IMG/VR virus record: IMGVR_UViG_3300012942_000032
Location: 58,282-122,281 of that record
DNA from: a virus
Taxonomy: Duplodnaviria; Heunggongvirae; Uroviricota; Caudoviricetes
DNA length: 64,000 nt
Reading direction: 5' to 3' (one strand)
Made by a program: the position numbers and the translations under genes. The stretch's first letter is position 1; each line of letters starts with the position of its first letter. This document shows positions 6,423 through 24,835 of this stretch, piece after piece. Under the pieces are notes generated by a model. It saw only the letters and a program-made list of their open reading frames with translations. It was not told where the DNA came from and did no database searches.

Positions 6423-6478
6423 AAGATTCCCCTGACTCTACAATGATATTATTGCAGGTTTCTACAGGTCTGTCAAGA

Positions 6479-9363: not shown

Positions 9364-9914
9364 AATCTACTCCATTGATTAACAAGAATTTAGTTCTTTA
9401 GAACAAATGAACTAAACTAATGCTCAGGAGTGATTTGAAGTCACACTTTGGCTATCTACACCAAAGTGTTTGGAAAAGGCGTCAGTCTGCGACCCTCATC
9501 ACATTAGTACACAGAGTGAGTAACTTCTAAACTCAGGACGTGGGAATCGGCAACGCCCTATACTCTGACACTGGTCTCTCGCGAGAATTCCGCCAGAGAG
9601 TTATCCTTGATCTAATGAGAATAACCCTCACACCTGTTGCCGTGCCGCAGAGCAGGTCATACTTTGATCGCATGTCAAACGATCTTTCATTCACTTATAT
9701 CTAGTTGGTCGCGTTGCGCATATACCAACCCGAAAGTCGAGCTTACGTTGCGAGTTACCAACGATTAGACTTTCTCATCTTTTTCATAATGTAAGCAAGG
9801 ATTCACATCCTTGCGGAAGTTAAGGCGTATTGTATGCGATAATTCACACAATGCAAAGAGCAAGTTTCATAACAGAACCAAAGAATGTGAATACTTGCTA
9901 CGCTGCACGCTTGC

Positions 9915-9960
9915 GCAGTAGCAGCACGCGCAACGCACAAAACCGCACGCACACGGGATC
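9915..9960 (+). repeat. GC-rich intergenic repeat family member (AGCAGCAC...AACCGCACG...GGGATC)
   Basis: Shares the AACCGCACG core and a GATC-ending tail with the copies at 18311-18370 and 22321-22370. Confidence 0.6.
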
Positions 9961-10046
9961 TCCACATTGTAAGTGCTTGTTTTTATTATGCGGATTTTGG
10001 GATTTTTGCGTACACAAGCAAACCAAACAGATCCTGCAGTCAGCAG

Positions 10047-10082
10047 AAAGGCGCAAAGTTTCCAATGCGCCTTTCTTTTGTT
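10047..10082 (+). terminator. rho-independent terminator-like hairpin (AAAGGCGCA-loop-TGCGCCTTT followed by CTTTTGTT)
   Basis: A 9-bp GC-rich stem followed by a T-run on the plus strand. Confidence 0.5.
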
Positions 10083-10377
10083 ACTGATTCTTTTCGTCGT
10101 TTGTTTTCTGGAGCAATTCTTCTTCGTGTTTCTGCTCGCCACCTACTCTTGCGGCAGCCAAGATTCGATACCACGAAGTAACATTGACTCCATGAAAGCT
10201 CTTGTCGATCGCACCCTTCATTGCAGCATCTTCTTCGCCACGCATGTGCCTCATCAGAGCATATTCGATCACCATTGTAGTTTCCGGTGAATCGTATCCA
10301 CATTCTTTGAGGGCACGGAGTCCTGCTGCAACATTGATGCGATCGACGTTGTGTCCAGGAATTAGACCAACTCGCAT
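10081..10377 (-). CDS. hypothetical protein (98 aa)
   Basis: ORF track; lies in a region of elevated GC. Confidence 0.45.
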   Translation of the reverse strand: MRVGLIPGHNVDRINVAAGLRALKECGYDSPETTMVIEYALMRHMRGEEDAAMKGAIDKSFHGVNVTSWYRILAAARVGGEQKHEEELLQKTNDEKNQ

Positions 10378-10380
10378 AAT

Positions 10381-10773
10381 CTACTCCTGCACCTTCCAGC
10401 CCCAGGCGATGCAGCCGAAACGAACATCGAGATCTATATCGTCTTTGCCCTTGATGCCCGATTCATCCGTAATGGAAATGAGTTCTTCACCGTCTTGGAT
10501 GTAGTTGAAAACCCAGAGAGGAACCAGCCACTGATTCTCGTCCCAGCGACCAAAGCCCAGCCGCGTCAAAGCCACCGGATCGGCTGCGCGGAGTTCTTCG
10601 ATCGTGATGCGCCTGGACAGTGTTCCGGTTTCCTTGCCCTTCCAGACATCACGAATCTGTTTCCTGGCAAAAGCGTCCGTCCAGGACTCGTAGGCGGCAC
10701 CTTCTGCGGCTTCCGCCAACAAGCAAAGCTGGATGTGTGCCAGGTAGTTCTCGAGAGTGACCTTGTTATCCAT
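10381..10773 (-). CDS. hypothetical protein (about 130 aa; internal start MDNKVTLENYL... preferred)
   Basis: ORF track 10381..10953. The upstream 60 codons are Arg-rich and low-complexity and overlap the next ORF. Confidence 0.45.
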   Translation of the reverse strand: MDNKVTLENYLAHIQLCLLAEAAEGAAYESWTDAFARKQIRDVWKGKETGTLSRRITIEELRAADPVALTRLGFGRWDENQWLVPLWVFNYIQDGEELISITDESGIKGKDDIDLDVRFGCIAWGWKVQE

Positions 10774-10787
10774 TTTCTTTCCTCTGT

Positions 10788-10985
10788 TTATGAAAGATGA
10801 TTCACTCGACGATCTGTCGATTCTTTCCAGTGATAAGCCCGTTCGTTCCTGCCTTGATTGGGCCGCCAAATGTTTTCTGCTTCGTCGAGCTTGGGCTCGT
10901 TTTCGAACCAAAACCACTCGCCATTGCGATCCATTGCCATGTAGTTTGCCCAACTAGGGGCATGTCGCCATTCAGGCTTCATCAT
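10788..10985 (-). CDS. hypothetical protein (65 aa)
   Basis: ORF track. Confidence 0.35.
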   Translation of the reverse strand: MMKPEWRHAPSWANYMAMDRNGEWFWFENEPKLDEAENIWRPNQGRNERAYHWKESTDRRVNHLS

Positions 10986-11130
10986 GATCTTTTACTCCAT
11001 GAAGTTGTCCACCAATGTTGTTTGCAGGAAGCCAGCAGTATCGAGCAAGATCTTTGTTCTTGCTATCATCAACCCAAATACCATCTTCCAGCTTGATTGC
11101 TCTTTTACAGTGCTCACAGATCGTTTTCAT
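10972..11130 (-). CDS. hypothetical zinc-finger-like small protein (MKTICEHCK...)
   Basis: CxxC at the N-terminus; internal ATG of track ORF 10972..11175. Confidence 0.4.
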   Translation of the reverse strand: MKTICEHCKRAIKLEDGIWVDDSKNKDLARYCWLPANNIGGQLHGVKDHDEA

Positions 11131-11140
11131 GATTGTCCCT

Positions 11141-12232
11141 TTAAGCGTACAGCCGAACCATACGCTTCCAATCACCGTTCGGATTGCTTGCGCGCAGGTT
11201 CAACCCTCGAACCAGCTTGCGCAAATTGATGCTGATACTGTTCCTGCTTTCCCTGAGAGCATCGACGACTTCCAACCTTTCCTGCTTCGAGAGATACAAT
11301 CCATCTTCCAGATCCACATTCATGCAGATCTTTTCCATCATTTCCAGTACTTCATCATCCGTGGGATCGATATTGATCATCAGTGCGCGTGTTCGCAGCG
11401 CGCCATCGGGATCGAGCCTGTTGATAGACAGATTGCTAATGAAGATCACTTTACCAGTGAACTCGAAGTGAGATGGCATGAATCCTGCTTCGATATCTTC
11501 TTCTGTGATGGTCTCGGGATCCATCAGATTCTTCGAAGACTTTGTCCATACCAGCTTCCGTACTTTCTTGGTATCGGTTGCTGCTTTGAACAAGTTTCGG
11601 GAATCGAGATCTGCCAGACTGCCATCACTGTCGTCAAACACCAGAATGTCATCTTTGTGCTTGAACATCAGTTTGTAGAGTCCGCTGGGGCTTGAAGTGC
11701 CCGTATTCTTGAAGTAACCCTCACCATCAGACATTCCGAGTTGGGCAAGAGTTTCTTCCACGACATGCGATTTACCAACGCCACCACGACCTGCAACAAA
11801 GCAAGCGTTAGACGCTCCGCACACGGTGAGATTAACCAGAGTCCTGAGATCTTCCAGTTGCTCATCGTAGGGCATTTTGCTTGCGTTGGGATTGATTCGC
11901 TCGACGCCCTCTTCTTGATTGCTTTGCGCAAAATGGGGCGGAGCTTGTGTAGAAGAGCTTTGGCGGGATGCTTGTGCAGGTCTGCTACCTGCAATACCCA
12001 TGTCGAAAAGAATTTGTTGCTTGTTATGGAGCAATTCATTGATATCAGTAACACTACCAATGAAAACAACATCTCGACCCTGTTTACCGAACAAGTGCGA
12101 GAAGTTTCTGCGCAGATGATTCATTACTCTACTTCTGCGCCCTGTGCTCCATTCCGAAACATTCAGCCTTTGTCCTGGTTCCAGTGCTGCTAGTGCATCG
12201 TTGAAAATCTGATCGAAGACATCATTTAACAT
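11141..12232 (-). CDS. P-loop NTPase (Walker A GRGGVGKSH, Walker B ILVFDDSDG)
   Basis: AAGGAG RBS 7 nt upstream of the ATG of MLNDVFDQ. Walker A and B motifs present. Sits in an island of about 50% GC. Confidence 0.65.
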   Translation of the reverse strand: MLNDVFDQIFNDALAALEPGQRLNVSEWSTGRRSRVMNHLRRNFSHLFGKQGRDVVFIGSVTDINELLHNKQQILFDMGIAGSRPAQASRQSSSTQAPPHFAQSNQEEGVERINPNASKMPYDEQLEDLRTLVNLTVCGASNACFVAGRGGVGKSHVVEETLAQLGMSDGEGYFKNTGTSSPSGLYKLMFKHKDDILVFDDSDGSLADLDSRNLFKAATDTKKVRKLVWTKSSKNLMDPETITEEDIEAGFMPSHFEFTGKVIFISNLSINRLDPDGALRTRALMINIDPTDDEVLEMMEKICMNVDLEDGLYLSKQERLEVVDALRESRNSISINLRKLVRGLNLRASNPNGDWKRMVRLYA

Positions 12233-12381
12233 CAACGGCTCCTTATTATGGATTGCGTGCTGGGTCCTGTGTCCCTGCTTGTGCATATATTATTGCATTA
12301 TCAAGTGATGCTGTCAATCAACCTTTCATGGTTTTACCACAGAAATTTCAGTGAACTTGTGATAGTAAATCTGATCTATGA

Positions 12382-12410
12382 TTGACATTCCTGTTTCATG
12401 AATCTATAAT
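12382..12410 (+). promoter_or_regulatory. sigma70 consensus promoter TTGACA-17-TATAAT
   Basis: Exact TTGACA(12382-12387), 17-nt spacer, TATAAT(12405-12410). A 12-bp hairpin plus T-stretch follows at 12424-12465 before the GNAT gene. Confidence 0.6.
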
Positions 12411-12475
12411 CAGCATTTTATTGTTGGTTAGAGCAGATTTTAGCTTCTAACCAACACTTTTCTGCACCTTACAGT

Positions 12476-12877
12476 ATGGAAGATATAATGAATAGTGTTT
12501 ATAGATACAACATCTATAATGTTCCAGACAAAATTCTTGTCCAATGTCTCCAAATGTTTAAGAGTACTATTACTCAAGACTTTGTCCGTTGCAAGAAAAC
12601 AAAACCTAATGATGCCTGGGTATTTCCTTTCGTTTGTTCTGACAATTGGAATAAATGGGAAGTCTATGGTTGGGGTCTGTTGGAATTTGAAGATGATACA
12701 GGAATCATTCAAATCTTTGTAGATGAAGATCATCGTCGTATTGGAGTAGGTAAAGAAATCTTTAAGCAAATGGAAGAATTTACTCTGATTCATGGAAAGA
12801 AGATAGGATATTTTGTTTCTGATAAGGAATCAAAGCATTTCTTTGGATCCATGGTAAATAAAGCATCAAATGTATGA
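12476..12877 (+). CDS. GNAT family N-acetyltransferase (133 aa)
   Basis: Motif A IQIFVDEDHRRIGVGKEIFKQMEEF (Q/R-x-x-G-x-G/A). Confidence 0.7.
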   Translation: MEDIMNSVYRYNIYNVPDKILVQCLQMFKSTITQDFVRCKKTKPNDAWVFPFVCSDNWNKWEVYGWGLLEFEDDTGIIQIFVDEDHRRIGVGKEIFKQMEEFTLIHGKKIGYFVSDKESKHFFGSMVNKASNV

Positions 12878-12886
12878 GTTATTTCA

Positions 12887-14725
12887 ATGGCTGGATTTAA
12901 AACTTCTATTCTAGACAAATCGCCAGTTCTATTTCTGACATTCGATGGAGATTCTTTCGATTCTGCTAGGCGAACTCTGACTGCGGTTCCTGCTCAGATC
13001 ATAGATGAATCTGGTCTAGGAAATAATGCTATCTTTCATGATGATGGTCTGAGTCCAGATTACTTTGGTTATAGAATGGGCATGCCATCAATGGTAGATC
13101 TAGAACCTGCCGATCAATATTCAATGTCATTTGGATATTATGGTGCTCAGCCTTTACATCCATCTATTTGGGCGAAAACATATCTAGAAGTTCCGCATGC
13201 AGATTCCTTCCAATTTCCTAATTATGGAAGTTTTTCTGTAACAGCAATGATCAATAAAGCTTCTAATGAAAATACCTTTAGAAACTATTATTCATCAAAC
13301 TGGAATACGAATACCCTTACCAGACCTATTATCAGAAAAGGTCTGGCTTTCAAATTAGATTACATTGATCCTTGGTCAGGAAATGATTATCTCCAAGTCA
13401 CCTATCCTGCAGGCACTTTGACTTGGAATGTTTACACAGATGGAACATTCTTTGGAAAGAATATGTTTGTTGCATTCTCCTGGAATGTTCAACAGCAACC
13501 TAATGGGATCTATTCTGCTACTGCAACTCTTTGGGTGAATGGAATCGTTGTCGCAACAAAGTCCCATACGTTCTTAGATACCTATCCTGCATCTAATGTT
13601 TCTAGTCCATGGGAGATTGCAGGAACTGCCGCAGCAAGCCCTAATGGTAACAATTATGATGATAGACAGACAAGTTCACTTGTTTTAGATCAAATTGCTG
13701 TCTATCAAGATCCATTGACAGATGACGATATTCTTTTCTTATTCAAGAAGATCAGAAGCTATGAGAATATGGTTATTGCTCATAGACCGTCCCAATTCTG
13801 GACACTTGGAGATCTAGAGTCTCAGACAAGTAATTCTATGGTACCTTTGGTAGGTTCCCTGACCGGAAAATATCTAGGCGGAACTGCTCGTATTCTAAGA
13901 CAGCAGACTGGTCCAACGAATATTGTCAATAGTTCAGGGACCAGATTCCAGGCAGGTGGTGTAGCAGTAGTTCACGATTCAAGTAATGATGCAAATCCAA
14001 TCTTTAATCCATCTGGTGATTATACAATTGAATTTTGGTTTACAGCCGAGAATGGTGATCAGAGTGTAATGATGTCAATGCAGTCTGACAATTATCCATT
14101 TACTGGTATGCTCATTCAAATGAATACAAAACAGGATGTGTATTCTAATGGAATGATTCAGTTTAAGGTAACAGATAGTTATACAGTGAGCACAAGGGAT
14201 CTAAAAGATGATAACATCAATAGATTCCAATTTAATGATGGCTATTGGCACCATTGCGTAGCTATTAGAAGAGGATCTAATATTGAGCTTTGGTTAGATG
14301 GCGTCCTTCATAATACCACATCTGCACCTGTAGGGACAATTGATAATTCTGGTCAGCTTTATTTGATGGGTATGATGCCTGGAGAATTGAATACGACTGG
14401 TTGTATGTCTGAATTTGTTCTTTACAATTATGCTCTTGCACCAGCAATGATCAGAGCTCATTATTCATATGCTCTGGTTTATCGTATTCATGGTCAGGTT
14501 ACCTTGCAGGGCGTTCCTTATCAAGCAAACGTCAGAGTTTATAATCATGAAAGTGGTGAGCTAATTAAGACAATTCAGTCCAATCAATCAGATGGTAATT
14601 ATCTGATTGATCTTTATGATAATTCGTTGATTGATTTGATGGTTTTAAATACACAAGATAGAAATGTGAGATATCGTGCCTATGGTCCGATTACTCCAGC
14701 AGAATATGAGGATCTACCTGCATGA
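12887..14725 (+). CDS. structural-like protein with two LamG-like domains and a C-terminal beta-sandwich (612 aa)
   Basis: LamG_3-type endings LVLDQIAVYQDPLTDDDI and MSEFVLYNYALAPAMI. Confidence 0.7.
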   Translation: MAGFKTSILDKSPVLFLTFDGDSFDSARRTLTAVPAQIIDESGLGNNAIFHDDGLSPDYFGYRMGMPSMVDLEPADQYSMSFGYYGAQPLHPSIWAKTYLEVPHADSFQFPNYGSFSVTAMINKASNENTFRNYYSSNWNTNTLTRPIIRKGLAFKLDYIDPWSGNDYLQVTYPAGTLTWNVYTDGTFFGKNMFVAFSWNVQQQPNGIYSATATLWVNGIVVATKSHTFLDTYPASNVSSPWEIAGTAAASPNGNNYDDRQTSSLVLDQIAVYQDPLTDDDILFLFKKIRSYENMVIAHRPSQFWTLGDLESQTSNSMVPLVGSLTGKYLGGTARILRQQTGPTNIVNSSGTRFQAGGVAVVHDSSNDANPIFNPSGDYTIEFWFTAENGDQSVMMSMQSDNYPFTGMLIQMNTKQDVYSNGMIQFKVTDSYTVSTRDLKDDNINRFQFNDGYWHHCVAIRRGSNIELWLDGVLHNTTSAPVGTIDNSGQLYLMGMMPGELNTTGCMSEFVLYNYALAPAMIRAHYSYALVYRIHGQVTLQGVPYQANVRVYNHESGELIKTIQSNQSDGNYLIDLYDNSLIDLMVLNTQDRNVRYRAYGPITPAEYEDLPA

Positions 14726-15690
14726 CAGCTTTTACTTGGAATACTCCTGCTCCACCTAGTCCCATGAGTGCAAATCTCTTGAGTAACTGGGTGACTTTGT
14801 TTCAAGATGTTGATGCTAGAATGCTTGCAGCTGGGTTTGTTCAGACTGCTGATACTGGCCAATTAGATATATCGACAATTTCATCATTCTTAAGTAACTC
14901 TGGAGATTTCTTCTACGGTTACAAGATGTATGCTTTGAATGATTCCTTGCAAGATACTTTGCCTGTCTATATCAAGGCGGAATTTGGTTCTGGACCAGCT
15001 GGTAATGCTACTTCAAACTCCGCCTACGTCACACCAAAAATTAGATGGTCTTTCGGAGTATCTAATTATCCTATTCTCCCATCAGATGGATCGGGAAATC
15101 TATCAAGCGCTATTGGTACTGGCACACATCCAAGTACCTCCACCAATGGTGGAGGTACTTTTAGTACCTCCACCAATGTGACTTCTTATTGCACCTACAA
15201 TGAAAATCTAGGTTTTTACTCATTGATTTATGGGCCTGGAATGATTGGAGCATTACAAGGTCTGGGAACTTGGTTCATTCAAAGAACAATTGATGAAACA
15301 ACAGGCCTTCCAAATGCAGATGGAGTGTGCATCTATTACATCAATAATACAACAGGTTCTTCGACTACAACCGGGCAAGCAATAAATTCTATTTTCACTA
15401 GCAGTTCTTATACTTCAGGTGTATCAACCTCGTGGGCACAAAGAGTAGGAGGAATAGCAAATACACAAGAAGGAACTACCGTGTATCTTCAGAGAGCATG
15501 GATGTTATCTCCTCGCCAAAGACCTTGTTATGGTTTAGCTACCTACAATAATTCTAATCTCTCTGCTGGCTCACAATTTCCTCTTCAAACTCTAGGTACA
15601 GAAACTAATAATTTCGTCGCCCTTGGCTCTCTTAGTGGATATCCGGACGGAAGTGGTTTAAGCGCCTCCTTTGCTATGCTTTTTGAATAA
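14722..15690 (+). CDS. hypothetical structural-like protein, Ser/Thr/Gly-rich (322 aa)
   Basis: ORF track; translationally coupled (ATGA overlap) with its neighbours. Confidence 0.6.
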   Translation: MTAFTWNTPAPPSPMSANLLSNWVTLFQDVDARMLAAGFVQTADTGQLDISTISSFLSNSGDFFYGYKMYALNDSLQDTLPVYIKAEFGSGPAGNATSNSAYVTPKIRWSFGVSNYPILPSDGSGNLSSAIGTGTHPSTSTNGGGTFSTSTNVTSYCTYNENLGFYSLIYGPGMIGALQGLGTWFIQRTIDETTGLPNADGVCIYYINNTTGSSTTTGQAINSIFTSSSYTSGVSTSWAQRVGGIANTQEGTTVYLQRAWMLSPRQRPCYGLATYNNSNLSAGSQFPLQTLGTETNNFVALGSLSGYPDGSGLSASFAMLFE

Positions 15691-16982
15691 TGACTGACTA
15701 TATCATCTCAAGCCCATCTAATACTTCACTTTCTGGAGTTCTTAGAGACGCAAAATTATCTTTCTCCCTAGAAAATAGAACTTTCTTTAGGGGAAACGGA
15801 TACTTCGCTGGAAAGATTTTAGATTCCAACAATCATCCTCAAGAAGGTGCGACTGTACAGATCTGGCACAGAGCAACGAATAGCCTTGTAGGAACGACTG
15901 TAACAGATGATAATGGTGATTATACCTTTGTCAATGTTCCGGTTGGTGAGATGTTTGATCTGATTGCTATCGATCCAACCGGAAAATGGGAAAGAAAAGT
16001 ATCTTCAAGTAGATACCCTCAATCAGGTTGGTATCCTGATTTGACGATGACGACTAGAGGAAGATATCTTTATGATCTTGGAGAAAAAGTAAACCAAGAC
16101 GCCAGAGGTTTTGGTGGTAATGGTTCTTATGCTTACACAATTGATAATTCCACTGAAGGTTTGATCTGTGATGGATCATCAGGTCACATCACAAGTGATC
16201 CTCTGTCTGTGTCAGGTGAAATAATTGAATATAATGTTACGGTTGGAGATGGATCAGGAAAAACTTTAAGCAAACCAATGTCATTCAAAACGTATGATGA
16301 TCCATATCATAGCTCTGTTGTTAGTTTGATGCATTTTGATGGCCTGTACTCTCCAACTGTTTTTACAGACGAATTGAATAATTCTTGGGTTAGAGGCGGT
16401 ACGCCTGTTATAAGCAATGCCAGTCCTATCTTCGGAGTAGGTAGCTATTATTCTTCGTCTACTTCTGCTAATAGAATCACATGGACGTGCGGTTCTGCTC
16501 CTGTTTTAGGAGACGGAGATTTTACACTTGAATGTTGGTTTATTCCTAAAGTTCTAACTTCTGCTTCCCAATGGCTAGGAATTGTTAATAGGAGAGTATC
16601 GAATACTAATGCATCTTGGTCTCTTTATCAAGATCAGAATAATGCAGGTATCAATTTTGGAATAACATTCACAGGTCAAGTAACTGATCTAACCTATTCT
16701 AAATGGACAACACCTCTTGTCTTGAATACGATATATCATTTGGCGGTATGCAGAGTAGACAATATTATCACACTGTATGTCAATGGTGAAGCAGGAAATA
16801 CAATTGATGTAGGCACATCAGCAGAATATAAATCTACTAATTCTATAGTTCTTGGTGCATTGGACACTTCCGGTGGAGCATCATCTATAAATGGTTACAT
16901 TGATGAAATGAGAATCACGCAAGGTGTTGCAAGGTACACTTCTAATTTTACTCCACCTACTGCTCCATTCACTTTGAACTAA
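15690..16982 (+). CDS. structural-like protein with carboxypeptidase-regulatory-like N-domain and C-terminal LamG domain (430 aa)
   Basis: FAGKILDSNNHPQEGATVQIW...DDNGDYTF is CarboxypepD_reg-like. The C-terminus is GYIDEMRITQGVARYTSNFTPPTAPFTLN. Confidence 0.7.
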   Translation: MTDYIISSPSNTSLSGVLRDAKLSFSLENRTFFRGNGYFAGKILDSNNHPQEGATVQIWHRATNSLVGTTVTDDNGDYTFVNVPVGEMFDLIAIDPTGKWERKVSSSRYPQSGWYPDLTMTTRGRYLYDLGEKVNQDARGFGGNGSYAYTIDNSTEGLICDGSSGHITSDPLSVSGEIIEYNVTVGDGSGKTLSKPMSFKTYDDPYHSSVVSLMHFDGLYSPTVFTDELNNSWVRGGTPVISNASPIFGVGSYYSSSTSANRITWTCGSAPVLGDGDFTLECWFIPKVLTSASQWLGIVNRRVSNTNASWSLYQDQNNAGINFGITFTGQVTDLTYSKWTTPLVLNTIYHLAVCRVDNIITLYVNGEAGNTIDVGTSAEYKSTNSIVLGALDTSGGASSINGYIDEMRITQGVARYTSNFTPPTAPFTLN

Positions 16983-17003
16983 TAGATGATTATTCAGTCA
17001 AAA

Positions 17004-17035
17004 GAATAGGGGCGATCAAGCCCCTATTCTTTTCA
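17004..17035. terminator. bidirectional rho-independent terminator between convergent genes
   Basis: AGAATAGGGGC-gatcaa-GCCCCTATTCT, an 11-bp perfect stem flanked by AAAAG on one side and TTTTC on the other. Confidence 0.75.
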
Positions 17036-17257
17036 GACAGCAGTCAATCCGTAACGATTGCTCTTCACGAACCTTCCATTATCCTTCATCGCTTTGAGCA
17101 GTTCTGCCAAAGCTCCTTCATAGCGATGACGCACTTCAGGATAATCATCGTCGATGACTGCGACCTGATTGTGATTCTTCAGAGCCTTCGAGAATTCGTT
17201 AGCAGCAGCGAATTCCTTACTCTGAAGTTCCATTCGTTTCAGGATATCATCGCTCAT
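17033..17257 (-). CDS. hypothetical protein (74 aa)
   Basis: ORF track. Confidence 0.5.
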   Translation of the reverse strand: MSDDILKRMELQSKEFAAANEFSKALKNHNQVAVIDDDYPEVRHRYEGALAELLKAMKDNGRFVKSNRYGLTAV

Positions 17258-17259
17258 GA

Positions 17260-17544
17260 TCAGTCCTGGTGCCGATGAACGATTTGTTCGATGATGTCAC
17301 CGTACTTGGCATCCTTGGTAATCGGCATCGTGTAACTGCGAGGCACACCATTCGCTTTGGTGCCGCTCTTGATGATGCGACCTTCGACGATCTGCCGACC
17401 GCGTGCCTTGTTGAAGCGATCGCGTTCGTTGCAGACTGCGATGGCATAGGTCACCGTGTCGTCGTTCCAGTTCCGACGATAGCCGATTGTGGCACGTCGA
17501 CCGAAATCCTGACCCAGGTGGGCATACTTGATCTTGTCTTCCAT
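17260..17544 (-). CDS. hypothetical protein (94 aa)
   Basis: ORF track. Confidence 0.5.
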   Translation of the reverse strand: MEDKIKYAHLGQDFGRRATIGYRRNWNDDTVTYAIAVCNERDRFNKARGRQIVEGRIIKSGTKANGVPRSYTMPITKDAKYGDIIEQIVHRHQD

Positions 17545-17545
17545 C

Positions 17546-17710
17546 TCTACTCCTTTGTGGCGGTAACGCCGTTAAGTTGCGCCTTCACCCTTTCGATCAG
17601 CTCAGTTGTGATCTGAACTCCCACAGGGTCTTTGTTAGCCTTCTCCAACAGGCGTTTGTTGGCCAAGGCGTCTACTACATCTTCCAAAAGCTCTTTCAGA
17701 TCTTCGTTCA
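17546..17710 (-). CDS. hypothetical small protein (54 aa, MNEDLKELLEDVVDALANKRLLEK...)
   Basis: Below the ORF-track threshold but exactly fills the gap between flanking minus-strand genes. Confidence 0.4.
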
Positions 17711-17944
17711 TAGCTCATTCGACATATAGTCGCCTTTGTGAACATAGACCTTGATAAGATCATTGCCATAGGCACAGAATTGATCGAATACGAAGCAATT
17801 CTTTTTGGTTCCGTTAGTGAATTTCTTCTCCTGCCAGTAGCCTGGAATTTCTTCCATCATCTTTCCAGCAAGCGAATTACTCACTTCTGCAACCAAAGCA
17901 CCTCCTTCATGACTCCTGATGTACATCATCAATATCCTTCCCAC
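17708..17944 (-). CDS. hypothetical protein (78 aa)
   Basis: ORF track. Confidence 0.45.
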   Translation of the reverse strand: MGRILMMYIRSHEGGALVAEVSNSLAGKMMEEIPGYWQEKKFTNGTKKNCFVFDQFCAYGNDLIKVYVHKGDYMSNEL

Positions 17945-18132
17945 TGTTCATTGCAGTCTTCGCAGTCATAAGCTGCATTCAGATGAATGCCATCAGGAAC
18001 ACATCCTACGCATTTGATGTTGGTACCAGAACATCGGGGACACATCTTGCCCTTACAGACGGTATCCCTTTGGTCTTCTGTGAATGTCCACTCGCTAGGT
18101 CTACTTGGCATTTTCTCTGCACCAGGATTCAA
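17929..18132 (-). CDS. hypothetical zinc-ribbon protein (67 aa)
   Basis: CKGKMCPRC...CVGC...CEDC cysteine pairs. Confidence 0.5.
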   Translation of the reverse strand: MNPGAEKMPSRPSEWTFTEDQRDTVCKGKMCPRCSGTNIKCVGCVPDGIHLNAAYDCEDCNEQWEGY

Positions 18133-18349
18133 ATTCTTCTTGTTGACGATCGTAAATCTCTTTGATCTTGTCGTCGGATGCTTCTAGCCTATATTCAGCG
18201 AGCTTCTGACGACAATCAGAAATTGGGAGGTCGCATGCCCAACAGTGTTCTATCAATTTTTCCGCATCAGAAAGTTTCATGATGGTATCAATCGTTGGCT
18301 GTATTGCGTGCAAGTGTAGCACAACAGCGCAGGGAGTGCAAAACCGCAC
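18101..18349 (-). CDS. hypothetical protein (82 aa)
   Basis: ORF track. Confidence 0.45.
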   Translation of the reverse strand: MRFCTPCAVVLHLHAIQPTIDTIMKLSDAEKLIEHCWACDLPISDCRQKLAEYRLEASDDKIKEIYDRQQEEFESWCRENAK

Positions 18350-18370
18350 GTAGCTGGGAAAATAGTGATC
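18311..18370 (+). repeat. GC-rich intergenic repeat family member (AGCACAACAGCGCAGGGAGTGCAAAACCGCACGTAGCTGGG...GTGATC)
   Basis: Shares the AACCGCACGTAGC core with 22321-22370. Confidence 0.6.
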
Positions 18371-18378
18371 TTTTCACA

Positions 18379-18460
18379 GAAAGCGCGCTGCAAAATCAAT
18401 GACTTACACGGTGGTCAAATCAGCGATTTTTGCAGCGCGCTAACATGCGCTTTCAGTTTT
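18379..18460 (+). terminator. long GC-rich hairpin (AGCGCGCTGCAAAA...TTTTGCAGCGCGCT) with trailing T-run
   Basis: A 14-bp stem nested in an outer GAAAGCGC/GCGCTTTC stem, followed by AGTTTT. Confidence 0.45.
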
Positions 18461-18584
18461 ACCAGAACTTTCCTATGAAATGGATCACCACGCAAATCAG
18501 GCCTACGAACAGGGCGATGCACACCACAGCCCAGATCGCAGTGATCAGTTCAACCAACGTGAAACCCTTCTGGAACTTCTTCAT
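18459..18584 (-). CDS. prepilin-like (type IV pilin N-terminal motif) mini-protein, 41 aa
   Basis: MKKFQKGFTLVELITAIWAVVCIALFVGLICVVIHF carries a canonical G|FTLVEL prepilin cleavage/methylation motif plus a hydrophobic helix. It is the internal start of track ORF 18459..18680. Confidence 0.45.
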   Translation of the reverse strand: MKKFQKGFTLVELITAIWAVVCIALFVGLICVVIHFIGKFW

Positions 18585-18597
18585 TACCTGCTCCTGA

Positions 18598-18810
18598 TTA
18601 CGAAAAACGCCCTTTCGGACGGTTGTCAAGGGAAACCTGATGTTTCTTAGCCTTCCCAAAATTGAAGAATCGACGGCCATCTTCCGTGTAGTACCTGGTT
18701 CCAGTCTTGTCCTTCCTGAACATCATTCCATGGGGAAGACCTTTGTTGCCGAAGGTCACTTCCATCTTCACGTTCAGGATATTGAGGGTGGTACGGAACT
18801 GGCGCGTCAT
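18598..18810 (-). CDS. hypothetical basic protein (70 aa)
   Basis: ORF track; preferred over the overlapping 18647..18877 frame. Confidence 0.4.
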   Translation of the reverse strand: MTRQFRTTLNILNVKMEVTFGNKGLPHGMMFRKDKTGTRYYTEDGRRFFNFGKAKKHQVSLDNRPKGRFS

Positions 18811-19022
18811 GAGATAAAGCTCTCGATGCTGATTTCGACGCCGTCGCTGTTCTTGAACTTCTCACCACGATGAACAATGGTGTAGACTGCGCCCCTGATG
18901 TTCAGGTTCTTGAGAAACCCTTCCAACATCTCACCTGCCGCGTCCGCACCTTCCCTCATGTACTTGGCGACAAAGTTCTGCGAAGTCGCATTCTTGTCGG
19001 GAATCTCGATCGTTATTTTCAT
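18807..19022 (-). CDS. hypothetical protein (71 aa)
   Basis: ORF track. Confidence 0.45.
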   Translation of the reverse strand: MKITIEIPDKNATSQNFVAKYMREGADAAGEMLEGFLKNLNIRGAVYTIVHRGEKFKNSDGVEISIESFIS

Positions 19023-19053
19023 TTCTTGCCCCTGTTAAATCGGAAAGGCTATC

Positions 19054-19302
19054 TTATCGCTCTGGCATCAAATTGATTTGGAGCGATTTCTGTACGAAAC
19101 TCTGATCATCGATCATTTCAACCATTTTCTTAGGATCGCAGTGATCAAGATAATCGTCGAAAGGATCAAGAACACTTCCTGCACATCCATCCCACACGAT
19201 GTTAGGATTGTGTGCAGCAACCCAACCTAAGGCACCTACTATCACCCTCAGTTGGTTCTCGGTCATCCTGACCTCTACGATTTCGTTTCTGATATCACTC
19301 AT
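19054..19302 (-). CDS. hypothetical protein (82 aa; internal start MSDIRNEIVEV...)
   Basis: Track ORF 19054..19542. The N-terminal extension overlaps the neighbouring gene in another frame. Confidence 0.45.
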   Translation of the reverse strand: MSDIRNEIVEVRMTENQLRVIVGALGWVAAHNPNIVWDGCAGSVLDPFDDYLDHCDPKKMVEMIDDQSFVQKSLQINLMPER

Positions 19303-19735
19303 CTTCTTCGGTCTCTTCGCTCGCAGTCCACACGAAGGAAGGCCAGTAGACGATGTAGTCTCGGCCCAGGTTGTCGTAACGTGCCCCTGTGATTCCGAAT
19401 TGAGCAGCCCGCTCGATGATCTTGATGGGATCTTCCCCAGAGATGCCGTAGCAGCGTTCACCGTACATGCACCTGCCGGAATAACCCTCATAGATCGAAA
19501 CATCTTCCGCGTCTCCTTGAAGCGACTCCACCACCTCATCAAAAAGGTTCTTGATGAAATCCTTGTTTTCCTTTTCGTCGCTCCTGGAAATCCGCCTCAG
19601 ACCATGAGTAAGATGGTCGATGCTGTTCTGTATCTCGTCTTTCGACTCTTCCAGCTCTTCAAGAAACTCCACGGCTTGCACCTCGCGTTGTTTTGCCCAT
19701 GCGTTTATAATAACGCAATGCAAGCGTGGAGTCAA
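19295..19735 (-). CDS. hypothetical acidic protein (146 aa)
   Basis: ORF track. Confidence 0.5.
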   Translation of the reverse strand: MTPRLHCVIINAWAKQREVQAVEFLEELEESKDEIQNSIDHLTHGLRRISRSDEKENKDFIKNLFDEVVESLQGDAEDVSIYEGYSGRCMYGERCYGISGEDPIKIIERAAQFGITGARYDNLGRDYIVYWPSFVWTASEETEEDE

Positions 19736-19764
19736 GTGAAGAAGTTAATTATCAGTGATATACG

Positions 19765-19986
19765 TCACTGATTCTTCTGATCGTATTCTTCCACGATTTT
19801 CTTGATCGTTTGCAGGTGCTGACCTTGGGAATAATATAGGTCGCCAGAAGTCTTGAAGACTAGATCACGAGTCTCCAAAGAACGCATCGTTGCGGGAAGA
19901 ACATCAAGTTCAGAGATCGACCTGGGGGTATTGTCGATCTTGCGGAGGGCTTCGATTTGAAGCTCGGTGAGGGGTTTAGCAGCCAT
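19765..19986 (-). CDS. hypothetical protein (73 aa)
   Basis: ORF track. Confidence 0.45.
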   Translation of the reverse strand: MAAKPLTELQIEALRKIDNTPRSISELDVLPATMRSLETRDLVFKTSGDLYYSQGQHLQTIKKIVEEYDQKNQ

Positions 19987-20161
19987 GACACATCTCCAGT
20001 GATAAGATACCCTTCCAAGGAGGGTACGTCCTTCCCCTGTTTTGAGATGTTATTGGTATCGGGGAAACTGGATGCGCTTCTTGATAACGAAGAAGAGGCC
20101 AACCAGGTCAAGAACCAAGACAGCATAAATCGCAATCAGAAGCGCATCCATTGACTTTCTC

Positions 20162-20485
20162 CTACTTGACAGCCTCGAGCAAGGAAGGAGCAACCTTCCA
20201 ATTCATGCCATTCTCTGCCTTGACCTGCACCGTCTTAGCATTGATCTTCTGAACGGTGCCACGAACATGCATCTGCTTCTTGGCAGAATAGAACATGACA
20301 CGATCATTGACCTTGAAGAGCTTGGCGGTCTGGTACTGCAAAGAGTTCCAGCGCTCCTTGATGGCGGCATTGATCTGAGTAAGATCGTCCGTCGTCATAC
20401 TATTGGTGCGATCGAGGATGGTGTTGACAATCTGAGAAGTATTCATGAAACACCTTTGGTTTGGATGAAGGTTGTTGGGCTCCAC
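20162..20485 (-). CDS. hypothetical protein (107 aa)
   Basis: ORF track. Confidence 0.45.
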   Translation of the reverse strand: MEPNNLHPNQRCFMNTSQIVNTILDRTNSMTTDDLTQINAAIKERWNSLQYQTAKLFKVNDRVMFYSAKKQMHVRGTVQKINAKTVQVKAENGMNWKVAPSLLEAVK

Positions 20486-20530
20486 CTATAAGCAAGTGTA
20501 ACGCAAACAAGCGAAGATAAAAAGAAATTT

Positions 20531-20779
20531 CTAAGAGTTATGATCAATCCTTGAGGCGACCATAGCCCTTGCTGTCGCCTCGTCTGCATTGTAAAGCTTG
20601 TCGCAGAAGAAACGATCTTGTCGGCACTTCTCCAGCTTCATGTATGAATAGAAGGCCTGACCCCAACGCAGAGCTGTATTCCTGTGCCTGAACGCATCCA
20701 CGCGACTCTTAGGGAACATGAGCATGATCTGCTCCTTTGATTTCTTCCGTGACACGAACCAGATCTTCCAGAGTGACAT
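20531..20779 (-). CDS. hypothetical protein (82 aa)
   Basis: ORF track. Confidence 0.4.
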   Translation of the reverse strand: MSLWKIWFVSRKKSKEQIMLMFPKSRVDAFRHRNTALRWGQAFYSYMKLEKCRQDRFFCDKLYNADEATARAMVASRIDHNS

Positions 20780-21038
20780 CCAAGAAGAAGACGATACCTC
20801 GATTCCATGTTCTGGTGTACTTGCCCATGAAGTTTTCCAGGGTCAGAGGATCAACCTTCTTCAGATCTTCTGGTGTGATTGCAAACGAATGGACAGTCTT
20901 GCTTTTGAGGATGCTTCCCACCAGATGAACGATATCAGGAAGAGCAATGTCATAGGTGTCAGACACAGGGTAGTGAGCAGCCTTGAAAGAGACGCACATA
21001 TCCTTCAGTTTGGCAACGATGTCATCTTGCAGACTCAT
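20709..21038 (-). CDS. hypothetical protein (about 109 aa, start MSLQDD...)
   Basis: Track ORF 20709..21065, with the internal start preferred. Confidence 0.45.
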   Translation of the reverse strand: MSLQDDIVAKLKDMCVSFKAAHYPVSDTYDIALPDIVHLVGSILKSKTVHSFAITPEDLKKVDPLTLENFMGKYTRTWNRGIVFFLDVTLEDLVRVTEEIKGADHAHVP

Positions 21039-21241
21039 GATCTTCTCCTTACTGTTCCGTACCATTGATTGTCATGAAAACTGATCGAACCTATTAGAGG
21101 ATGACCTTCAGAGTCCTTTCCTTCCCAGTGTGCCTTGACGGGTTCCAGACCTTGATCCCGTAAGAACAGACGAACGTACTGAAGATTATCATCCTTGTAT
21201 TCTATGATTCCATTCTTTTTGACTACACCTAAGAAAGGCAC
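21035..21241 (-). CDS. hypothetical protein (68 aa)
   Basis: ORF track. Confidence 0.45.
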   Translation of the reverse strand: MPFLGVVKKNGIIEYKDDNLQYVRLFLRDQGLEPVKAHWEGKDSEGHPLIGSISFHDNQWYGTVRRRS

Positions 21242-21492
21242 TCGACTCTCCCCAACCTATTCATCAGCCGCGCAGACTTCGGTTCGTGCTTCGCGGTATT
21301 GATGGAACAGATTGTGAAGTCATTCCTGTGGAGCAACCTTCCAAGACGGTTCTCAATGCAATGCACGCAGAGCATTCCAATCTTGGTCGTGACAACAGAT
21401 AACCAAACCTCATCCTTAAGGTAATAGTGTTCGTAGATCTTTCCTGTATCAACTTTGCAATCCAGACACAGGAACTTAGACCTAGATTTCAT
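21229..21492 (-). CDS. hypothetical zinc-finger protein (87 aa)
   Basis: CLDC...CVHC cysteine pairs. Confidence 0.45.
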   Translation of the reverse strand: MKSRSKFLCLDCKVDTGKIYEHYYLKDEVWLSVVTTKIGMLCVHCIENRLGRLLHRNDFTICSINTAKHEPKSARLMNRLGRVECLS

Positions 21493-21625
21493 TTCTTGTC
21501 TTCCTTGCCAGGACAGGGAGCATTCATTGCCTTAGACGTGGCAGAGTTCTTCAGATTGATCAGACCACAGCGTCCACAGAACATGAAAGACATCTTGTGA
21601 GTGATCTTGAACCAGATATGACTTT

Positions 21626-21892
21626 TCATTTGACAATCCTGCTGTTCATGGCAACCATTTCTTGCACCAGAAGAAGATCAAAGTCGTCTGTCGTAGGGGC
21701 AGCCGCAATGACATTGAAACCGTGTTTCGTGAGGTAGTTGGCAGCAGTGACCACCATATCACGTGCCTCATAGTCGAAGGGGATTGTGATGCGATCACCA
21801 GGATGTCTGCATGAATACATCCTGATCCGCGCTCCTCGTTTGGAAGTAGGACCAATCTTCTTTACTTTGATCGCATGAAGATTAGGAAACAT
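21626..21892 (-). CDS. hypothetical protein (88 aa)
   Basis: ORF track. Confidence 0.45.
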   Translation of the reverse strand: MFPNLHAIKVKKIGPTSKRGARIRMYSCRHPGDRITIPFDYEARDMVVTAANYLTKHGFNVIAAAPTTDDFDLLLVQEMVAMNSRIVK

Positions 21893-21903
21893 TCTTTCTC
21901 CCC

Positions 21904-22212
21904 TTATTCTGGAATTTTGATCTTCACAGAATGATCATTGAAGTCGACAGTCATCAGGATGTCCCACTCATCCTCAAACGGAATGATGTAAGGATCTTCA
22001 TCCATCATGACCAACTCAATCACTTTGCAACCAGGTTCCCACTTCCAATTCGGCGCCCAGTGAGCCCAATCAAATTTGATAGCATCCAGGATGCAGCTTC
22101 CAAGACATCTTTCTTCCTTCAGCACCCAGGTATTCTTCTCGGGATAGGATTCTTTGATACAATCCTTGCCGAAAATCCTTTCTATCAGATCTCTACCGTA
22201 CATGGCGTGCAC
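21904..22212 (-). CDS. hypothetical Trp-rich protein (102 aa)
   Basis: ORF track. Confidence 0.45.
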   Translation of the reverse strand: MHAMYGRDLIERIFGKDCIKESYPEKNTWVLKEERCLGSCILDAIKFDWAHWAPNWKWEPGCKVIELVMMDEDPYIIPFEDEWDILMTVDFNDHSVKIKIPE

Positions 22213-22320
22213 CTGCTTGCCTGTTATCCATGCTTTATACTAACATGATCCATTATGGAATAGCAACTGAAGATTTAGACTATCTGTGATATAGATCTTC
22301 TGTTAGAATCTTCAATACTT

Positions 22321-22370
22321 TGCACACTAGCAGCACACAATCCCTGCAGAACCGCACGTAGCAGGATGAT
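22321..22370 (+). repeat. GC-rich intergenic repeat family member (TAGCAGCACACAATCCCTGCAGAACCGCACGTAGCAGGATGATC)
   Basis: See the repeat-family finding. Confidence 0.6.
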
Positions 22371-22465
22371 CGTCTCCAAATGTTTACAAAAGCGCATTAC
22401 AAAACAACGACTTGCGCTGACAATAGTCATGAAAATGCGCGCACAAAATGCACGCGCAGTTCCTG

Positions 22466-22696
22466 TTAATTCGTTTTCAGATCAGCAAGCTTGGCGAGGA
22501 ACTCGATCTCTTGCCTTCCTTGTTTCTTCAACCAGTCCAGAGTGCGACGATGATTGGACGGAATAGCTCTGGCGGCAGGACGACCACGATAGGTATATTT
22601 GTACTCCGCATCTTTCAGAGTACCATCCGCATGATACCATGCCCTGCATTTCTCCCAGGCAAGCATGAAGCTTCCGTCTTGGAAGTTAACCTTCAT
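22466..22696 (-). CDS. hypothetical protein (76 aa)
   Basis: ORF track. Confidence 0.45.
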   Translation of the reverse strand: MKVNFQDGSFMLAWEKCRAWYHADGTLKDAEYKYTYRGRPAARAIPSNHRRTLDWLKKQGRQEIEFLAKLADLKTN

Positions 22697-24235: not shown

Positions 24236-24835
24236 GCGCTTATACTAGCACACAAGCAAAAGAAAGCAAGTGAAGATTTGAACTATCGTAGAACTCTGTC
24301 TAACTTACTTCGTCTAACTTACTTCTTAGGTACCTTACTCAGTTCAGATCTCCGAACACGAAGAGCTTTCCCATCACAAAAGATCGCCGCCCAACCCGGC
24401 TCCTTAAACTTCATACCCTGAATGACCTCGACCTTCCGCCCCTGATACATCTTCATCACCAACCGTGCCATACCCCATCACCTCCTGTAGTCCTGTGTCA
24501 ACATATGATGCAGTTCCTCCGCAATAGATAACAGAGCAAGCGCATTAGCATCTAACTTTTTCTCAAATGCCTTCTCTTTCATCTTAAACAACTTCTTCCG
24601 CAACACATGAAGCTGACGAACTTTCCGTTCCTGTAAGTCCATAACCACTCCCTCGCCCTAAAAGGTAAAGACATACTAAAAGAACATTCAGAAGAAAGCA
24701 AATAGAATCTAAGAAGTATCGTAGACACAATACTACACAAGCCCAGCACCAATATAGAACCTACGATGTAACGCGCTATAACAGCGCACAAGCAACGCGC
24801 ATCCCAACAGCAATACAGCAGCACACCCTTATACC

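Follow-up and report, generated by a model that had tools for sequence, protein, structure and literature searches.

Three copies of a short motif lie within the window, by which we mean the whole 64,000-nt (64-kb) stretch of phage DNA that was analysed. Each occupies a gap that is free of genes according to gene calls and open reading frames: copy A at 9939-9952 (AAAACCGCACGCAC, in plus-strand letters) in the gap 9364-10080, copy B at 18340-18354 (AAAACCGCACGTAGC) in the gap 17930-18458, and copy C at 22349-22362 (GAACCGCACGTAGC) in the gap 22204-22465. The correct reading strand of the motif has to be the minus strand, the same as that of the surrounding genes. Read this way, the conserved element forms the core of a 150–250-nt intergenic unit, or cassette, that runs the same way as the genes. 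After the stop codon of the preceding gene come one or two stable terminator-like hairpins, an A/T-tract box (AAAAWCAAGCACTTAC) in either orientation, a 22–25-nt core (TTCCC-N6-CGTGCGGTTTTGC), a GC-rich stretch in which purines and pyrimidines alternate and which includes a GTGCTA(N3)T box, and an AT-richer leader. The features of the three cassettes are as follows:

10046 to 10076, minus strand: hairpin of cassette A (-23.9 kcal/mol, z=-6.0), directly after the stop codon of gene 10081..10377
9966 to 9984, minus strand: A-tract box of cassette A (AAAAACAAGCACTTACAAT), from alignment; reversed in cassettes B and C
9884 to 9965, minus strand: element A, core TCCCGTGTGCGTGCGGTTTTGTGC, with CGTGCGG at 9949-9943, from the nhmmer envelope and alignments
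9829 to 9857, minus strand: proximal sigma-70-type promoter TTTGCA-17-TACAAT, preceding the structured RNA
9383 to 9822, minus strand: structured non-coding RNA of ~440 nt, with a conserved multi-helix core and covariation
18382 to 18441, minus strand: long hairpin of cassette B (-37.6 kcal/mol, z=-4.1; plus strand -28.6)
18285 to 18366, minus strand: element B, core TCCCAGCTACGTGCGGTTTTGCAC, with CGTGCGG at 18350-18344, from profile and alignment
18101 to 18280, minus strand: 59-aa open reading frame directly after element B, missing from the public annotation
22436 to 22458, minus strand: intrinsic terminator of cassette C, after gene 22466..22696; a 10-bp GC-rich stem, then UUUUCAUG
22391 to 22418, minus strand: second hairpin of cassette C, holding the reversed box (GCGCAAGTCGTTGTTTTG), then UUUUGU
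22293 to 22374, minus strand: element C, core ATCCTGCTACGTGCGGTTCTGCAG, with CGTGCGG at 22358-22352 and GTGTGCTGCTAGTGT next
22237 to 22266, minus strand: candidate proximal promoter TTGCTA-18-TAGTAT, matching 8 of 12 consensus positions

The hairpins at all three sites fold better as minus-strand than as plus-strand RNA, and because they abut minus-strand stop codons (at B, that of gene 18459..18584) they are explained as terminators of the genes they follow. The cassette A hairpin is kept with compensatory changes in five relatives (L054, L055, L056, L064 and L065) and, having U-runs on both strands, could terminate transcription in either direction. From the end of the stable hairpin to the core there are 29 nt at B, 35 nt at C and about 95 nt at A. 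The original prediction placed hairpins after the motif; they do stand beside all three sites, but since both the genes and the reading direction are on the minus strand, they precede it. A small plus-strand hairpin with a U-run also lies near B (18434-18460). The box CCCTGCAG, with which every copy was thought to start, is present as such only in C, is on the other strand in B and is missing from A. The cassette B hairpin contains the reversed box (GTGTAAGTCATTGATTTTG), and UUUCUGUG then follows; CAAGCACTTACAA is exact in copy A of the window and of L056, and reverse-complemented in copy B of L055 and L056. After its core, element A continues with GTGCTGCTACTGC and then the highly conserved GCGCAAGCGTGCAGCGTAGCAAG. 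Purine-pyrimidine alternation reaches 0.70–0.76 in the A copies, where the background is 0.46 ± 0.07.

A profile HMM trained on six copies of other phages, excluding all window sequence, returned A (E=1e-14), B (E=1e-10) and C (E=3e-5, by a model that included no C copy) from the 64 kb, with a runner-up at E=2.7; a model of the relatives' B copies alone recovers A and C too. Because a relatives-only profile picks exactly these three sites, the family exists beyond chance. The proposal of one core at three intergenic sites in a single orientation is confirmed, by coordinates as well as by this profile. By itself the 9-mer has no significance (seven matches at ≤1 mismatch versus 4.2 expected). 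No extra copy was found in the 8 kb beyond the window start, which gives three copies in the 72 kb covered of a ~157-kb genome; the relatives' loci of 12–21 kb that span both the A and B positions have two copies each. Other parts of the initial description fared less well. GATC, taken as part of the motif, is incidental: it is twofold over-represented across the whole window (480 versus 235 expected) and is missing near the core from eight of the nine relatives' copies, the sole carrier being copy B of L054. The supposedly related boxes at 24812-24840 and 26150-26260 score E>0.5 with the family profile; they are part of a separate 48-nt repeat (24826-24873 and 26246-26293, 85% identical), and a box at 26146-26156 has the opposite orientation. 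Nor is the region AT-rich, as had been stated, since 10–32 kb has 40–51% GC, above the 36–43% of the late region; the 72-nt motif blocks have 46–58% GC versus 32–47% in their own 60-nt flanks. A REP or MITE-like mobile repeat was considered and rejected, given the asymmetric core and just three copies, at orthologous positions in relatives.

Sites A and B recur at orthologous positions across five related metagenomic phages. Their cores are near-identical among relatives whose flanking proteins share 35–70% amino acid identity, a pattern that shows the family to be selected for and fits strong purifying selection at both sites. Paralogous copies are 45–55% identical outside a core of 13–19 nt. 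In L055, the B-type cassette carries a 23-nt A-type patch; one exchange between cassette copies has therefore occurred. Gene content around the cassettes is fluid: all four relatives compared have a different gene order just after B, between zero and five genes separate the AAA-ATPase gene from cassette A depending on the phage, and 5.8 billion proteins include no homologue of the gene after C. In L054, a homologue of the 59-aa open reading frame after B lies elsewhere (2246-2425; 33% identity, E=3e-10).

Element B contains a promoter-like pair (TTGCAC at 18341-18336, a 17-nt spacer and TACACT at 18318-18313), followed by an ATG at 18280. As a sigma-70-like match it is weak, with seven of 12 consensus positions and a GC-rich -10, yet the pattern TTGCnn-17/18-TAnnCT is kept in four of five B copies, and a start codon follows the -10 by 33–52 nt (70–89 nt after the core start) in all five genomes with B. 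By eye, there is no other promoter candidate ahead of the gene after B, and an SD sequence is visible in L054 and L055 and absent from the window copy and L065. In elements A and C, the sole TTG...TA pairs have too short a spacing, 14 nt; TTTTGC after the core is lost in two A orthologues (L056 and L065), and the next start codon is much further off than after B (the gene downstream of C starts at 22203). Instead, a second promoter follows, its -10 lying 115 nt from the core start at A and 116 nt at C (114, 114 and 118 nt in A orthologues). Taking all elements together, the TA-boxes (TACACT, TACGCT, TAAGCT, TAGTGT, TACTGC and TATGTA) vary, and the nearest one is 26, 29 or 32 nt from the core depending on the copy, too loose a distance for a -35-type contact. 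Canonical TTGACA-17-TATAAT promoters are present in the window at 6448-6476, 12289-12317, 12382-12410 and 19707-19735; the GC-rich elements, being unlike these, would form a separate class, too sparse at three copies in 72 kb to be the phage's general promoter type.

The motif region has no conserved RNA fold (consensus folds reach just -2.4 and -5.2 kcal/mol, and single-copy z-scores are mostly 0 to -1, as base composition predicts), no reading frame that is open with a start codon across all copies, and, on reading the aligned copies, no conserved plus-strand -35/-10 pair. These results speak against action as an RNA or as a protein.

Downstream of cassette A, the ~440-nt structured RNA is previously undescribed. 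It begins with a 5' hairpin (9814-9795) and ends in a terminator hairpin (9418-9381) just ahead of an SD sequence and the ATG of a 306-aa gene. Its model has 52 pairs, 24 of them with compensatory changes, and pairing stands at 94.9% versus 81.6% in shuffles (0/500); no match was found in Rfam. The -10 is at the same place upstream of the RNA in 10/10 homologues whose flank was read, mostly by eye. Between element A and the RNA, a boxA-like string, TGCTCTTTG, can be read in the sequence, at this site only. The RNA also occurs in cultured Stenotrophomonas and Xanthomonas phages and so, unlike the motif, could be studied in the laboratory straight away. A scan of the phages with this RNA, which left out BUDD and Moby, found the element missing from the distant carriers L057 (21 kb) and YB07 (3 kb), and it was not seen in the few hundred bases upstream of the RNA in L062; the RNA therefore does not need the element.

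With moderate confidence, we read the three sites as terminator-promoter cassettes with a new GC-rich core that is probably bound by protein. The earlier suggestion of a phage-specific regulatory cassette agrees with selection in five relatives, an orientation that matches the genes, and a place right after the hairpins. We infer from the sequences protein binding to the core, promoter activity of any copy and the timing in infection. At the core, a sequence-specific DNA-binding protein of the phage or its host would dock and set where transcription restarts beyond the terminator, by analogy with T4 middle promoters placed behind early terminators. In B-type cassettes, the core at about -38 to -58 abuts the weak sigma-70-like promoter TTGCAC-17-TACACT, which would drive the next gene; at A and C, about 120 nt upstream of a separate and more ordinary promoter, it may be a weak tandem promoter or regulate from upstream. 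The copies, conserved repeats at gene-cassette borders, also recombine with one another. More tentatively, and with considerable doubt, TTCCC-N6-CGTGCGGTTTTGC could be the box of a phage-encoded transcription factor and define a new delayed, activator-dependent promoter class. A Pfam search found no MotA, AsiA or sigma domains in the 68 minus-strand open reading frames of 1.9–33 kb, more than half of the genome lying outside the window, and it yielded no candidate regulator, with a single weak HTH match among these early-region frames. MotA and AsiA appear to be missing from T4-like phages beyond the classical T-even group. If the tentative proposal were true, the "middle promoter" strategy of T4 would have been invented independently in a T4-like lineage without MotA or AsiA in the part examined, and the ~440-nt structured RNA would be among the targets of a phage-encoded transcription factor. 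A conserved non-canonical element behind terminators offers a handle on the little-understood timing of expression in such phages after the first minutes of infection, and can be cloned and used as protein bait.

It is unlikely that the cassettes are chiefly recombination substrates, as proposed for the stem-loop cassettes of T4-type phages, through which small genes are swapped, inserted and deleted with secondary effects on transcription. The A-type patch in L055, the variable genes after B and before A, and the gene after C without a homologue all speak for exchange at these sites, and lend some direct support to the idea of a recombination hot spot. However, exchange is rare, since orthologues group by site; three copies in 72 kb with 45–55% identity outside a 13–19-nt core make a poor homologous substrate; conservation far above that of neighbouring genes implies a function needed every generation; and regions of this kind typically vary in gene content whether or not they hold repeats. 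Replication origins of the T4 ori(uvsY)/ori(34) kind, where a regulated promoter precedes an easily unwound AT-rich stretch and the annealed transcript primes DNA synthesis, seem very doubtful. Every copy does have a GC-rich block (46–58% GC) followed by an AT-richer 60 nt (32–47% GC), the low copy number fits, and the alternation in the A copies is extreme. Yet the GC skew of the blocks, +0.1 to +0.2 (negative in copy B of the window and of L056), is within the background of 0.08 ± 0.20, and the G-rich RNA signature expected of stable R-loops is missing; the B start codon falls within 70–89 nt, and a shared DnaA-box or iteron pattern is absent.

Two further alternatives place the function in RNA. 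That the element works within minus-strand read-through transcripts, as a processing site, a translational operator or a loading site for antitermination (boxA, nut or ops-like), is quite improbable. The U-run of the B hairpin is weak, which makes read-through plausible; the strand is rich in G and U, and in 11 of 12 copies the minus-strand RNA folds more stably than the plus. Untranslated RNAs often have to be protected from Rho, and the boxA-like string lies ahead of one, but it is confined to A and is upstream of the structured RNA's own conserved promoter. Moreover, neither structure nor covariation is conserved across the elements, fold energies match base composition, and the linear sequence matches no known RNA family. 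A plus-strand small RNA gene at each motif, ending at a GC-rich hairpin with a T-run, is hardly credible. The A hairpin has a good plus-strand U-run (UUUCUUUUGUU) and B has its small U-run hairpin at 18434-18460, but C has U-runs on the minus strand alone, and its plus-strand fold is no better than shuffles (z=-0.7). Relatives keep neither a -35/-10 pair nor a structure for such an RNA, and the hairpins, which are upstream of the motif, are explained as terminators of the genes whose stops they abut; the predicted small RNAs running from motif to downstream hairpin thus find no support.

Returning to protein-bound terminator-promoter cassettes, several known systems invite comparison. A sigma-54 promoter (TGGCAC-N5-TTGCW) was rejected: the GG of CGTGCGG is 2 or 9 nt from TTGC, not 8, and the pattern is not shared. 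An IHF site consists of an A-tract plus WATCAANNNNTTR, and the box AAAAWCAAGCACTTAC matches it exactly in the window's cassette B (18394-18406) and with one mismatch in other copies; like architectural sites, it sits upstream of the core in either orientation. However, IHF consensus matches are not enriched in the window (8 versus 5.9 expected), and in B and C the box is inside a hairpin, which could explain its conservation. Ribosomal RNA operons are controlled by tandem P1 and P2 promoters about 120 bp apart, upstream activator sites and boxA. Element A similarly precedes a stable structured RNA's promoter by ~120 nt, with the boxA-like string between them, but only this copy fits, the string is upstream of the RNA's promoter, and there are no Fis or UP-type AT-rich sites.

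The middle promoters of T4 depend on sigma appropriation, with a MotA box, (a/t)(a/t)(a/t)TGCTTtA, 12 ± 1 bp from an excellent -10 (TAtaaT) (Hinton 2010, PMC2988021). The cassettes resemble them in having an asymmetric, phage-specific box in place of the -35 or overlapping it, often behind early terminators and in tandem with another promoter, and TTTTGC is similar to positions one to six of the MotA box. Unlike T4 middle promoters, they have no TGCTT, no excellent -10, and 13–16 nt to the -10-like box; box, spacing and -10 all depart from this MotA-dependent class in the aligned copies.

The closest parallel is with the promoter-early stem-loop (PeSL) cassettes of T4-type phages, which occur as series or sets in each genome, clustered in variable regions, and combine a good sigma-70 promoter (17-nt spacer) with AT-rich sequence upstream of it (Arbiol et al. 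2010, PMC2839356; Comeau et al. 2014, PMC4122927). The present cassettes differ in number (three copies in 72 kb, not many), in the GC-rich core CCCAGCTACGTGCGG that replaces AT-rich sequence upstream of the -35, in the conservation of this core upstream of or overlapping a weak -35, and in the separate promoter about 115 nt further on at A and C. Like PeSLs, they lie between small early genes of a T4-like myovirus and have a stem-loop or terminator immediately before a promoter-like element. They match the genes in orientation, and they adjoin insertions, deletions and rearrangements between close relatives, with exchange between copies. PeSLs end in an SD sequence and a start codon; here a start codon comes after the B copies, with an SD sequence visible in some, and is much further off at A and C. 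With these cassettes, the terminator-promoter modules thought to drive gene shuffling in T4-type phages would gain a GC-rich form of low copy number.

Genes around the three intergenic sites lie on the minus strand, with the exception of a plus-strand block at 12.4–17.0 kb, and thus the motif, originally described on the plus strand, has to be read in reverse complement:

9884–9965, minus strand, motif copy A, in a gene-free gap of 717 nt
18285–18366, minus strand, motif copy B, in a gene-free gap of 529 nt
22293–22374, minus strand, motif copy C, in a gene-free gap of 262 nt

The core named in the original prediction is present at all three, where the common minus-strand sequence is CGTGCGGTT(T/C)TG, and B and C are identical at 18 of 19 bases (GCTACGTGCGGTTyTGCA). 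The bare 9-mer is not a significant signal taken alone. Related phages found via the neighbouring AAA-ATPase and 306-aa proteins (one related-locus search with the AAA protein returned no loci) bring the motif copies to 12: six A-type and five B-type at orthologous positions, plus C. A profile built solely on the six copies of the first three relatives detected all three sites in the window (E=1e-14 for A, 1e-10 for B and 3e-5 for C) and matched nothing else there better than E=2.7, and a further 8 kb past the window start contained no copy; we therefore conclude that the family is real but small. A model from the B copies alone still detected A and C. The 51 single matches of a 16-nt core pattern in IMG/VR fell in unrelated contigs, at chance level. 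No orthologues of copy C were identified, since the gene that follows it lacks any recorded homologue. A 14-mer identical to the copy C core, ACGTGCGGTTCTGC, is found at 16485–16498 (plus strand, opposite to copy C) inside a LamG-domain gene (15690–16982); its flanks have no further similarity, and it is probably a chance match, though such a repeat is unexpected in 64 kb.

The window itself derives from a T4-like myovirus. Its genes include those for a tail sheath, a gp6-type baseplate protein and a large terminase that shares 62% identity with the terminase of the Stenotrophomonas Smp14/Mendera group; a nucleotide search found no close match among cultured phages, and the identical sequence also occurs in metagenome assemblies, e.g. 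ENA ERZ27256360 contig k141_210475.

On the minus strand, each site begins with a hairpin immediately 3′ of the stop codon of the upstream gene, so that the hairpins precede the motif rather than follow it as first proposed. The RNA fold is more stable on this strand than on the plus strand, and termination of the upstream genes best accounts for the hairpins:

Hairpin A, −23.9 kcal/mol on the minus strand (z=−6.0), −22.0 kcal/mol on the plus strand
Hairpin B, −37.6 kcal/mol on the minus strand (z=−4.1), −28.6 kcal/mol on the plus strand
Hairpin C, −28.9 kcal/mol on the minus strand (z=−2.2), −20.6 kcal/mol on the plus strand; separately listed as terminator-like

After the hairpin comes an A/T-tract box, AAAAWCAAGCACTTAC, which in A is oriented opposite to B and C; in B and C the box lies within the hairpin. 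The core, TTCCC-N6-CGTGCGGTTTTGC, comes after this box and is followed 3′ by a GC-rich stretch carrying a GTGCTA(N3)T-type box whose reverse complement is the TAGCAGCAC box described originally. Purine-pyrimidine alternation in the GC-rich stretch reaches 0.70–0.76 in the A copies, versus a background of 0.46 ± 0.07, and the 60 nt beyond it are AT-richer.

Several further parts of the original description did not survive comparison. The CCCTGCAG box assigned to all three sites is found only at C, and base composition contradicts the AT-rich region in which they were placed. GATC, proposed as part of the element, is missing from eight of nine copies in relatives and is in two-fold excess window-wide (2.0× expected); TGCA occurs at 1.45× and ACGT and GTAC at only 0.54–0.57×, a tetranucleotide bias that may stem from methylation or restriction pressure. 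The boxes at 24.8 and 26.2 kb, one of them inverted, do not match the profile and belong to a second repeat family (24826–24873 and 26246–26293; 48 nt, 85% identical, CCCTxxxxxxTCCCTGCGCTTGTAGCGCGTTAyAAAAGC on the plus strand), which explains why they had seemed related. The GC-rich, apparently non-coding segment 26107–26330 also contains two GTGCTAGTGT boxes (plus strand, 26168 and 26233). A 298-nt gap at 27268–27565 has two 36-nt direct repeats, 94% identical (27344–27379 and 27448–27483), and additional partial copies of TTGGGAGCGAGTCAA; from its sequence it looks like an array of putative binding sites, with an origin or iterons among the possibilities.

The motif differs from the other promoters of the window, which are canonical (TTGACA-17-TATAAT and close variants, at 6448–6476, 12289–12317, 12382–12410 and 19707–19735). 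Two of these form a back-to-back consensus sigma-70 pair at 12289–12410: the minus-strand member reads TTGACA-17-AATAAT and the plus-strand member is a perfect TTGACA-17-TATAAT. The pair separates the AAA-ATPase gene from the plus-strand block of LamG-domain, tail-fibre-like genes inside the early region. Promoter-like sequences at the cassettes, each comprising a motif copy and its hairpin(s), are as follows:

18341–18313, minus strand, putative promoter within copy B, TTGCAC-17-TACACT
9857–9829, minus strand, second promoter at A, TTTGCA-17-TACAAT
22266–22237, minus strand, candidate second promoter at C, TTGCTA-18-TAGTAT

The B-type arrangement (TTGCnn, a 17- or 18-nt spacer and TAnnCT) is kept in four of five genomes, with the start codon 33–52 nt downstream of the −10 and no alternative promoter before the gene visible by eye. 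It is weak, agreeing with the sigma-70 consensus at 7 of 12 positions; the core lies at about −38 to −58 relative to it, a region in which activators or upstream elements operate. The A and C elements have no acceptable −35/−10 pair inside, since the spacing is 14 nt. The distance from the core to the −10 of the second promoter is nearly constant, at 115 nt for A, 116 for C and 114, 114 and 118 for three A orthologues. Simple promoter-box patterns (GTGCTANNNT and TTGACA-N17-TANNNT) were not enriched. Sigma-54 and ECF-type promoters were rejected on spacing, read directly on either strand; the motif does not correspond to a MotA box as defined in PMC2988021, and GC skew within background disposed of an R-loop-prone G-rich tract. 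An IHF reading of the A-tract box was set aside, as the consensus is not enriched; an extra exact CAAGCACTTAC (29658–29668) falls within a gene.

Taken together, the sites are best explained as putative composite terminator-plus-regulatory cassettes, in which the GC-rich core is new and is most likely a site for a sequence-specific protein. Such a protein would govern re-initiation of transcription behind the terminators; a regulator candidate was not apparent among 68 ORFs of the window. We give this transcription-control reading an even chance, the remainder being shared by four rivals: a mainly recombinational role, action at the RNA level, an origin-like function and the plus-strand small RNAs of the original prediction. 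The last of these is unlikely, as it would need transcription in the other direction, where there is no conserved promoter and where the U-runs at C, confined to the minus strand, are absent. As for RNA, the motif was rejected as a structured element (consensus folds of −2.4 and −5.2 kcal/mol are negligible), as was a hairpin in A-type copies, most of which fold no better than shuffled sequence, and no known RNA family matched the motif. Nor is it coding, for no frame with a start codon is open throughout in all copies.

One exchange between copies is evident, and the gene complement varies immediately beside the cassettes. The B cassette of one relative (L055) joins a B-type core to a 23-nt A-type block, which is a conversion patch; the small genes behind B are ordered differently in each relative, and zero to five genes, varying by phage, separate the AAA-ATPase gene from cassette A. 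The window has two additional small ORFs behind B, both absent from public annotation:

18101–18280, minus strand, uncalled ORF with a homologue elsewhere in relative L054 (E=3e-10)
17929–18132, minus strand, uncalled ORF for a CxxC...CxxC zinc-ribbon-like peptide

Motif orthologues nonetheless group by site, indicating that the duplication is old and that selection keeps both copies. Blocks such as TTTTCCCAGCTrygTGCGGTTTTGCG and GCGCAAGCGTGCAGCGTAGCAAG are almost invariant despite divergent flanking proteins (35–70% identical among phages at B, 49–57% for the 306-aa protein beside A).

Work on copy A had a by-product that may be of greater importance than the motif. The gene-free stretch of ~440 nt downstream of it (about 9822 to 9383, minus strand) is 85–95% identical among close relatives. 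Homologues are also present in metagenomic T4-like phages at a greater distance (L057, L062), in cultured Stenotrophomonas phages (Smp14, IME-SM1, YB07, Mendera, Moby and others) and in Xanthomonas phages BUDD and X1; the records either leave it without annotation or show a short "hypothetical protein" overlapping it:

Close relatives: L054 9725–10165; L055 11655–12100; L056 11813–12262; L064 6355–6800; L065 9535–9985
Other loci: L057 14695–15085; L062 1310–1745 (minus strand); L063 (YB07) 1360–1725; L068 (BUDD) 550–970; L069 (Moby) 498–895

An alignment from 11 phages marks it as a structured non-coding RNA: 10 helices contain 52 base pairs, and compensatory changes occur in 24 of the pairs. 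Pairing holds in 94.9% of cells versus 81.6% in shuffles (0 of 500 reach 94.9%) and falls to 45% or less when partners are slid by 1–3 columns; covariation is strong. The RNA carries a conserved −10 box of its own, together with a 5′ hairpin and a terminator. It matched no Rfam family; scans with its strings returned nothing from IMG/VR and one short relative only from JGI metagenomes, and its pattern gave a single chance match, inside a GC-rich bacterial gene, among 185,579 bacterial and archaeal genomes. In cultured Mendera-type phages (YB07, NC_048755.1 9223–10212) it occupies a ~1-kb unannotated gap flanked by the genes for the tail sheath stabiliser and the large terminase. In YB07 it is on the strand opposite to these flanking genes, and the neighbourhood is unlike that of the window. 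No GC-rich element accompanies it in L057 or YB07 by profile scan, or in L062, where little upstream sequence is available; thus the motif is a clade-specific addition upstream of the RNA gene.

Other RNA genes were also noted in the window:

1648–1884, minus strand, phage-encoded permuted (two-piece type) tmRNA, tag peptide AKTKNVAANDDVYAVALAA
404–485, 929–1000 and 1440–1521, minus strand, three tRNA genes beside the tmRNA
59673–59709, plus strand, abiF RNA family match between two late genes (39.4 bits against a gathering score of 37, E=0.0012)

Permuted tmRNAs are known from only a few bacterial groups, and that of the phage may hint at its host.

Among known systems, the cassettes appear nearest to the promoter-early stem-loop (PeSL) modules of T4-type phages (PMC4122927), while falling outside that family as defined. 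PeSL cassettes have an upstream AT-rich region, occur in many copies and have a good sigma-70 promoter in each, whereas those described here lack the AT-rich region, are few, and have such a promoter at best in B. For the proposed control of re-initiation behind terminators, the middle promoters of T4 (PMC2988021) offer an analogue.
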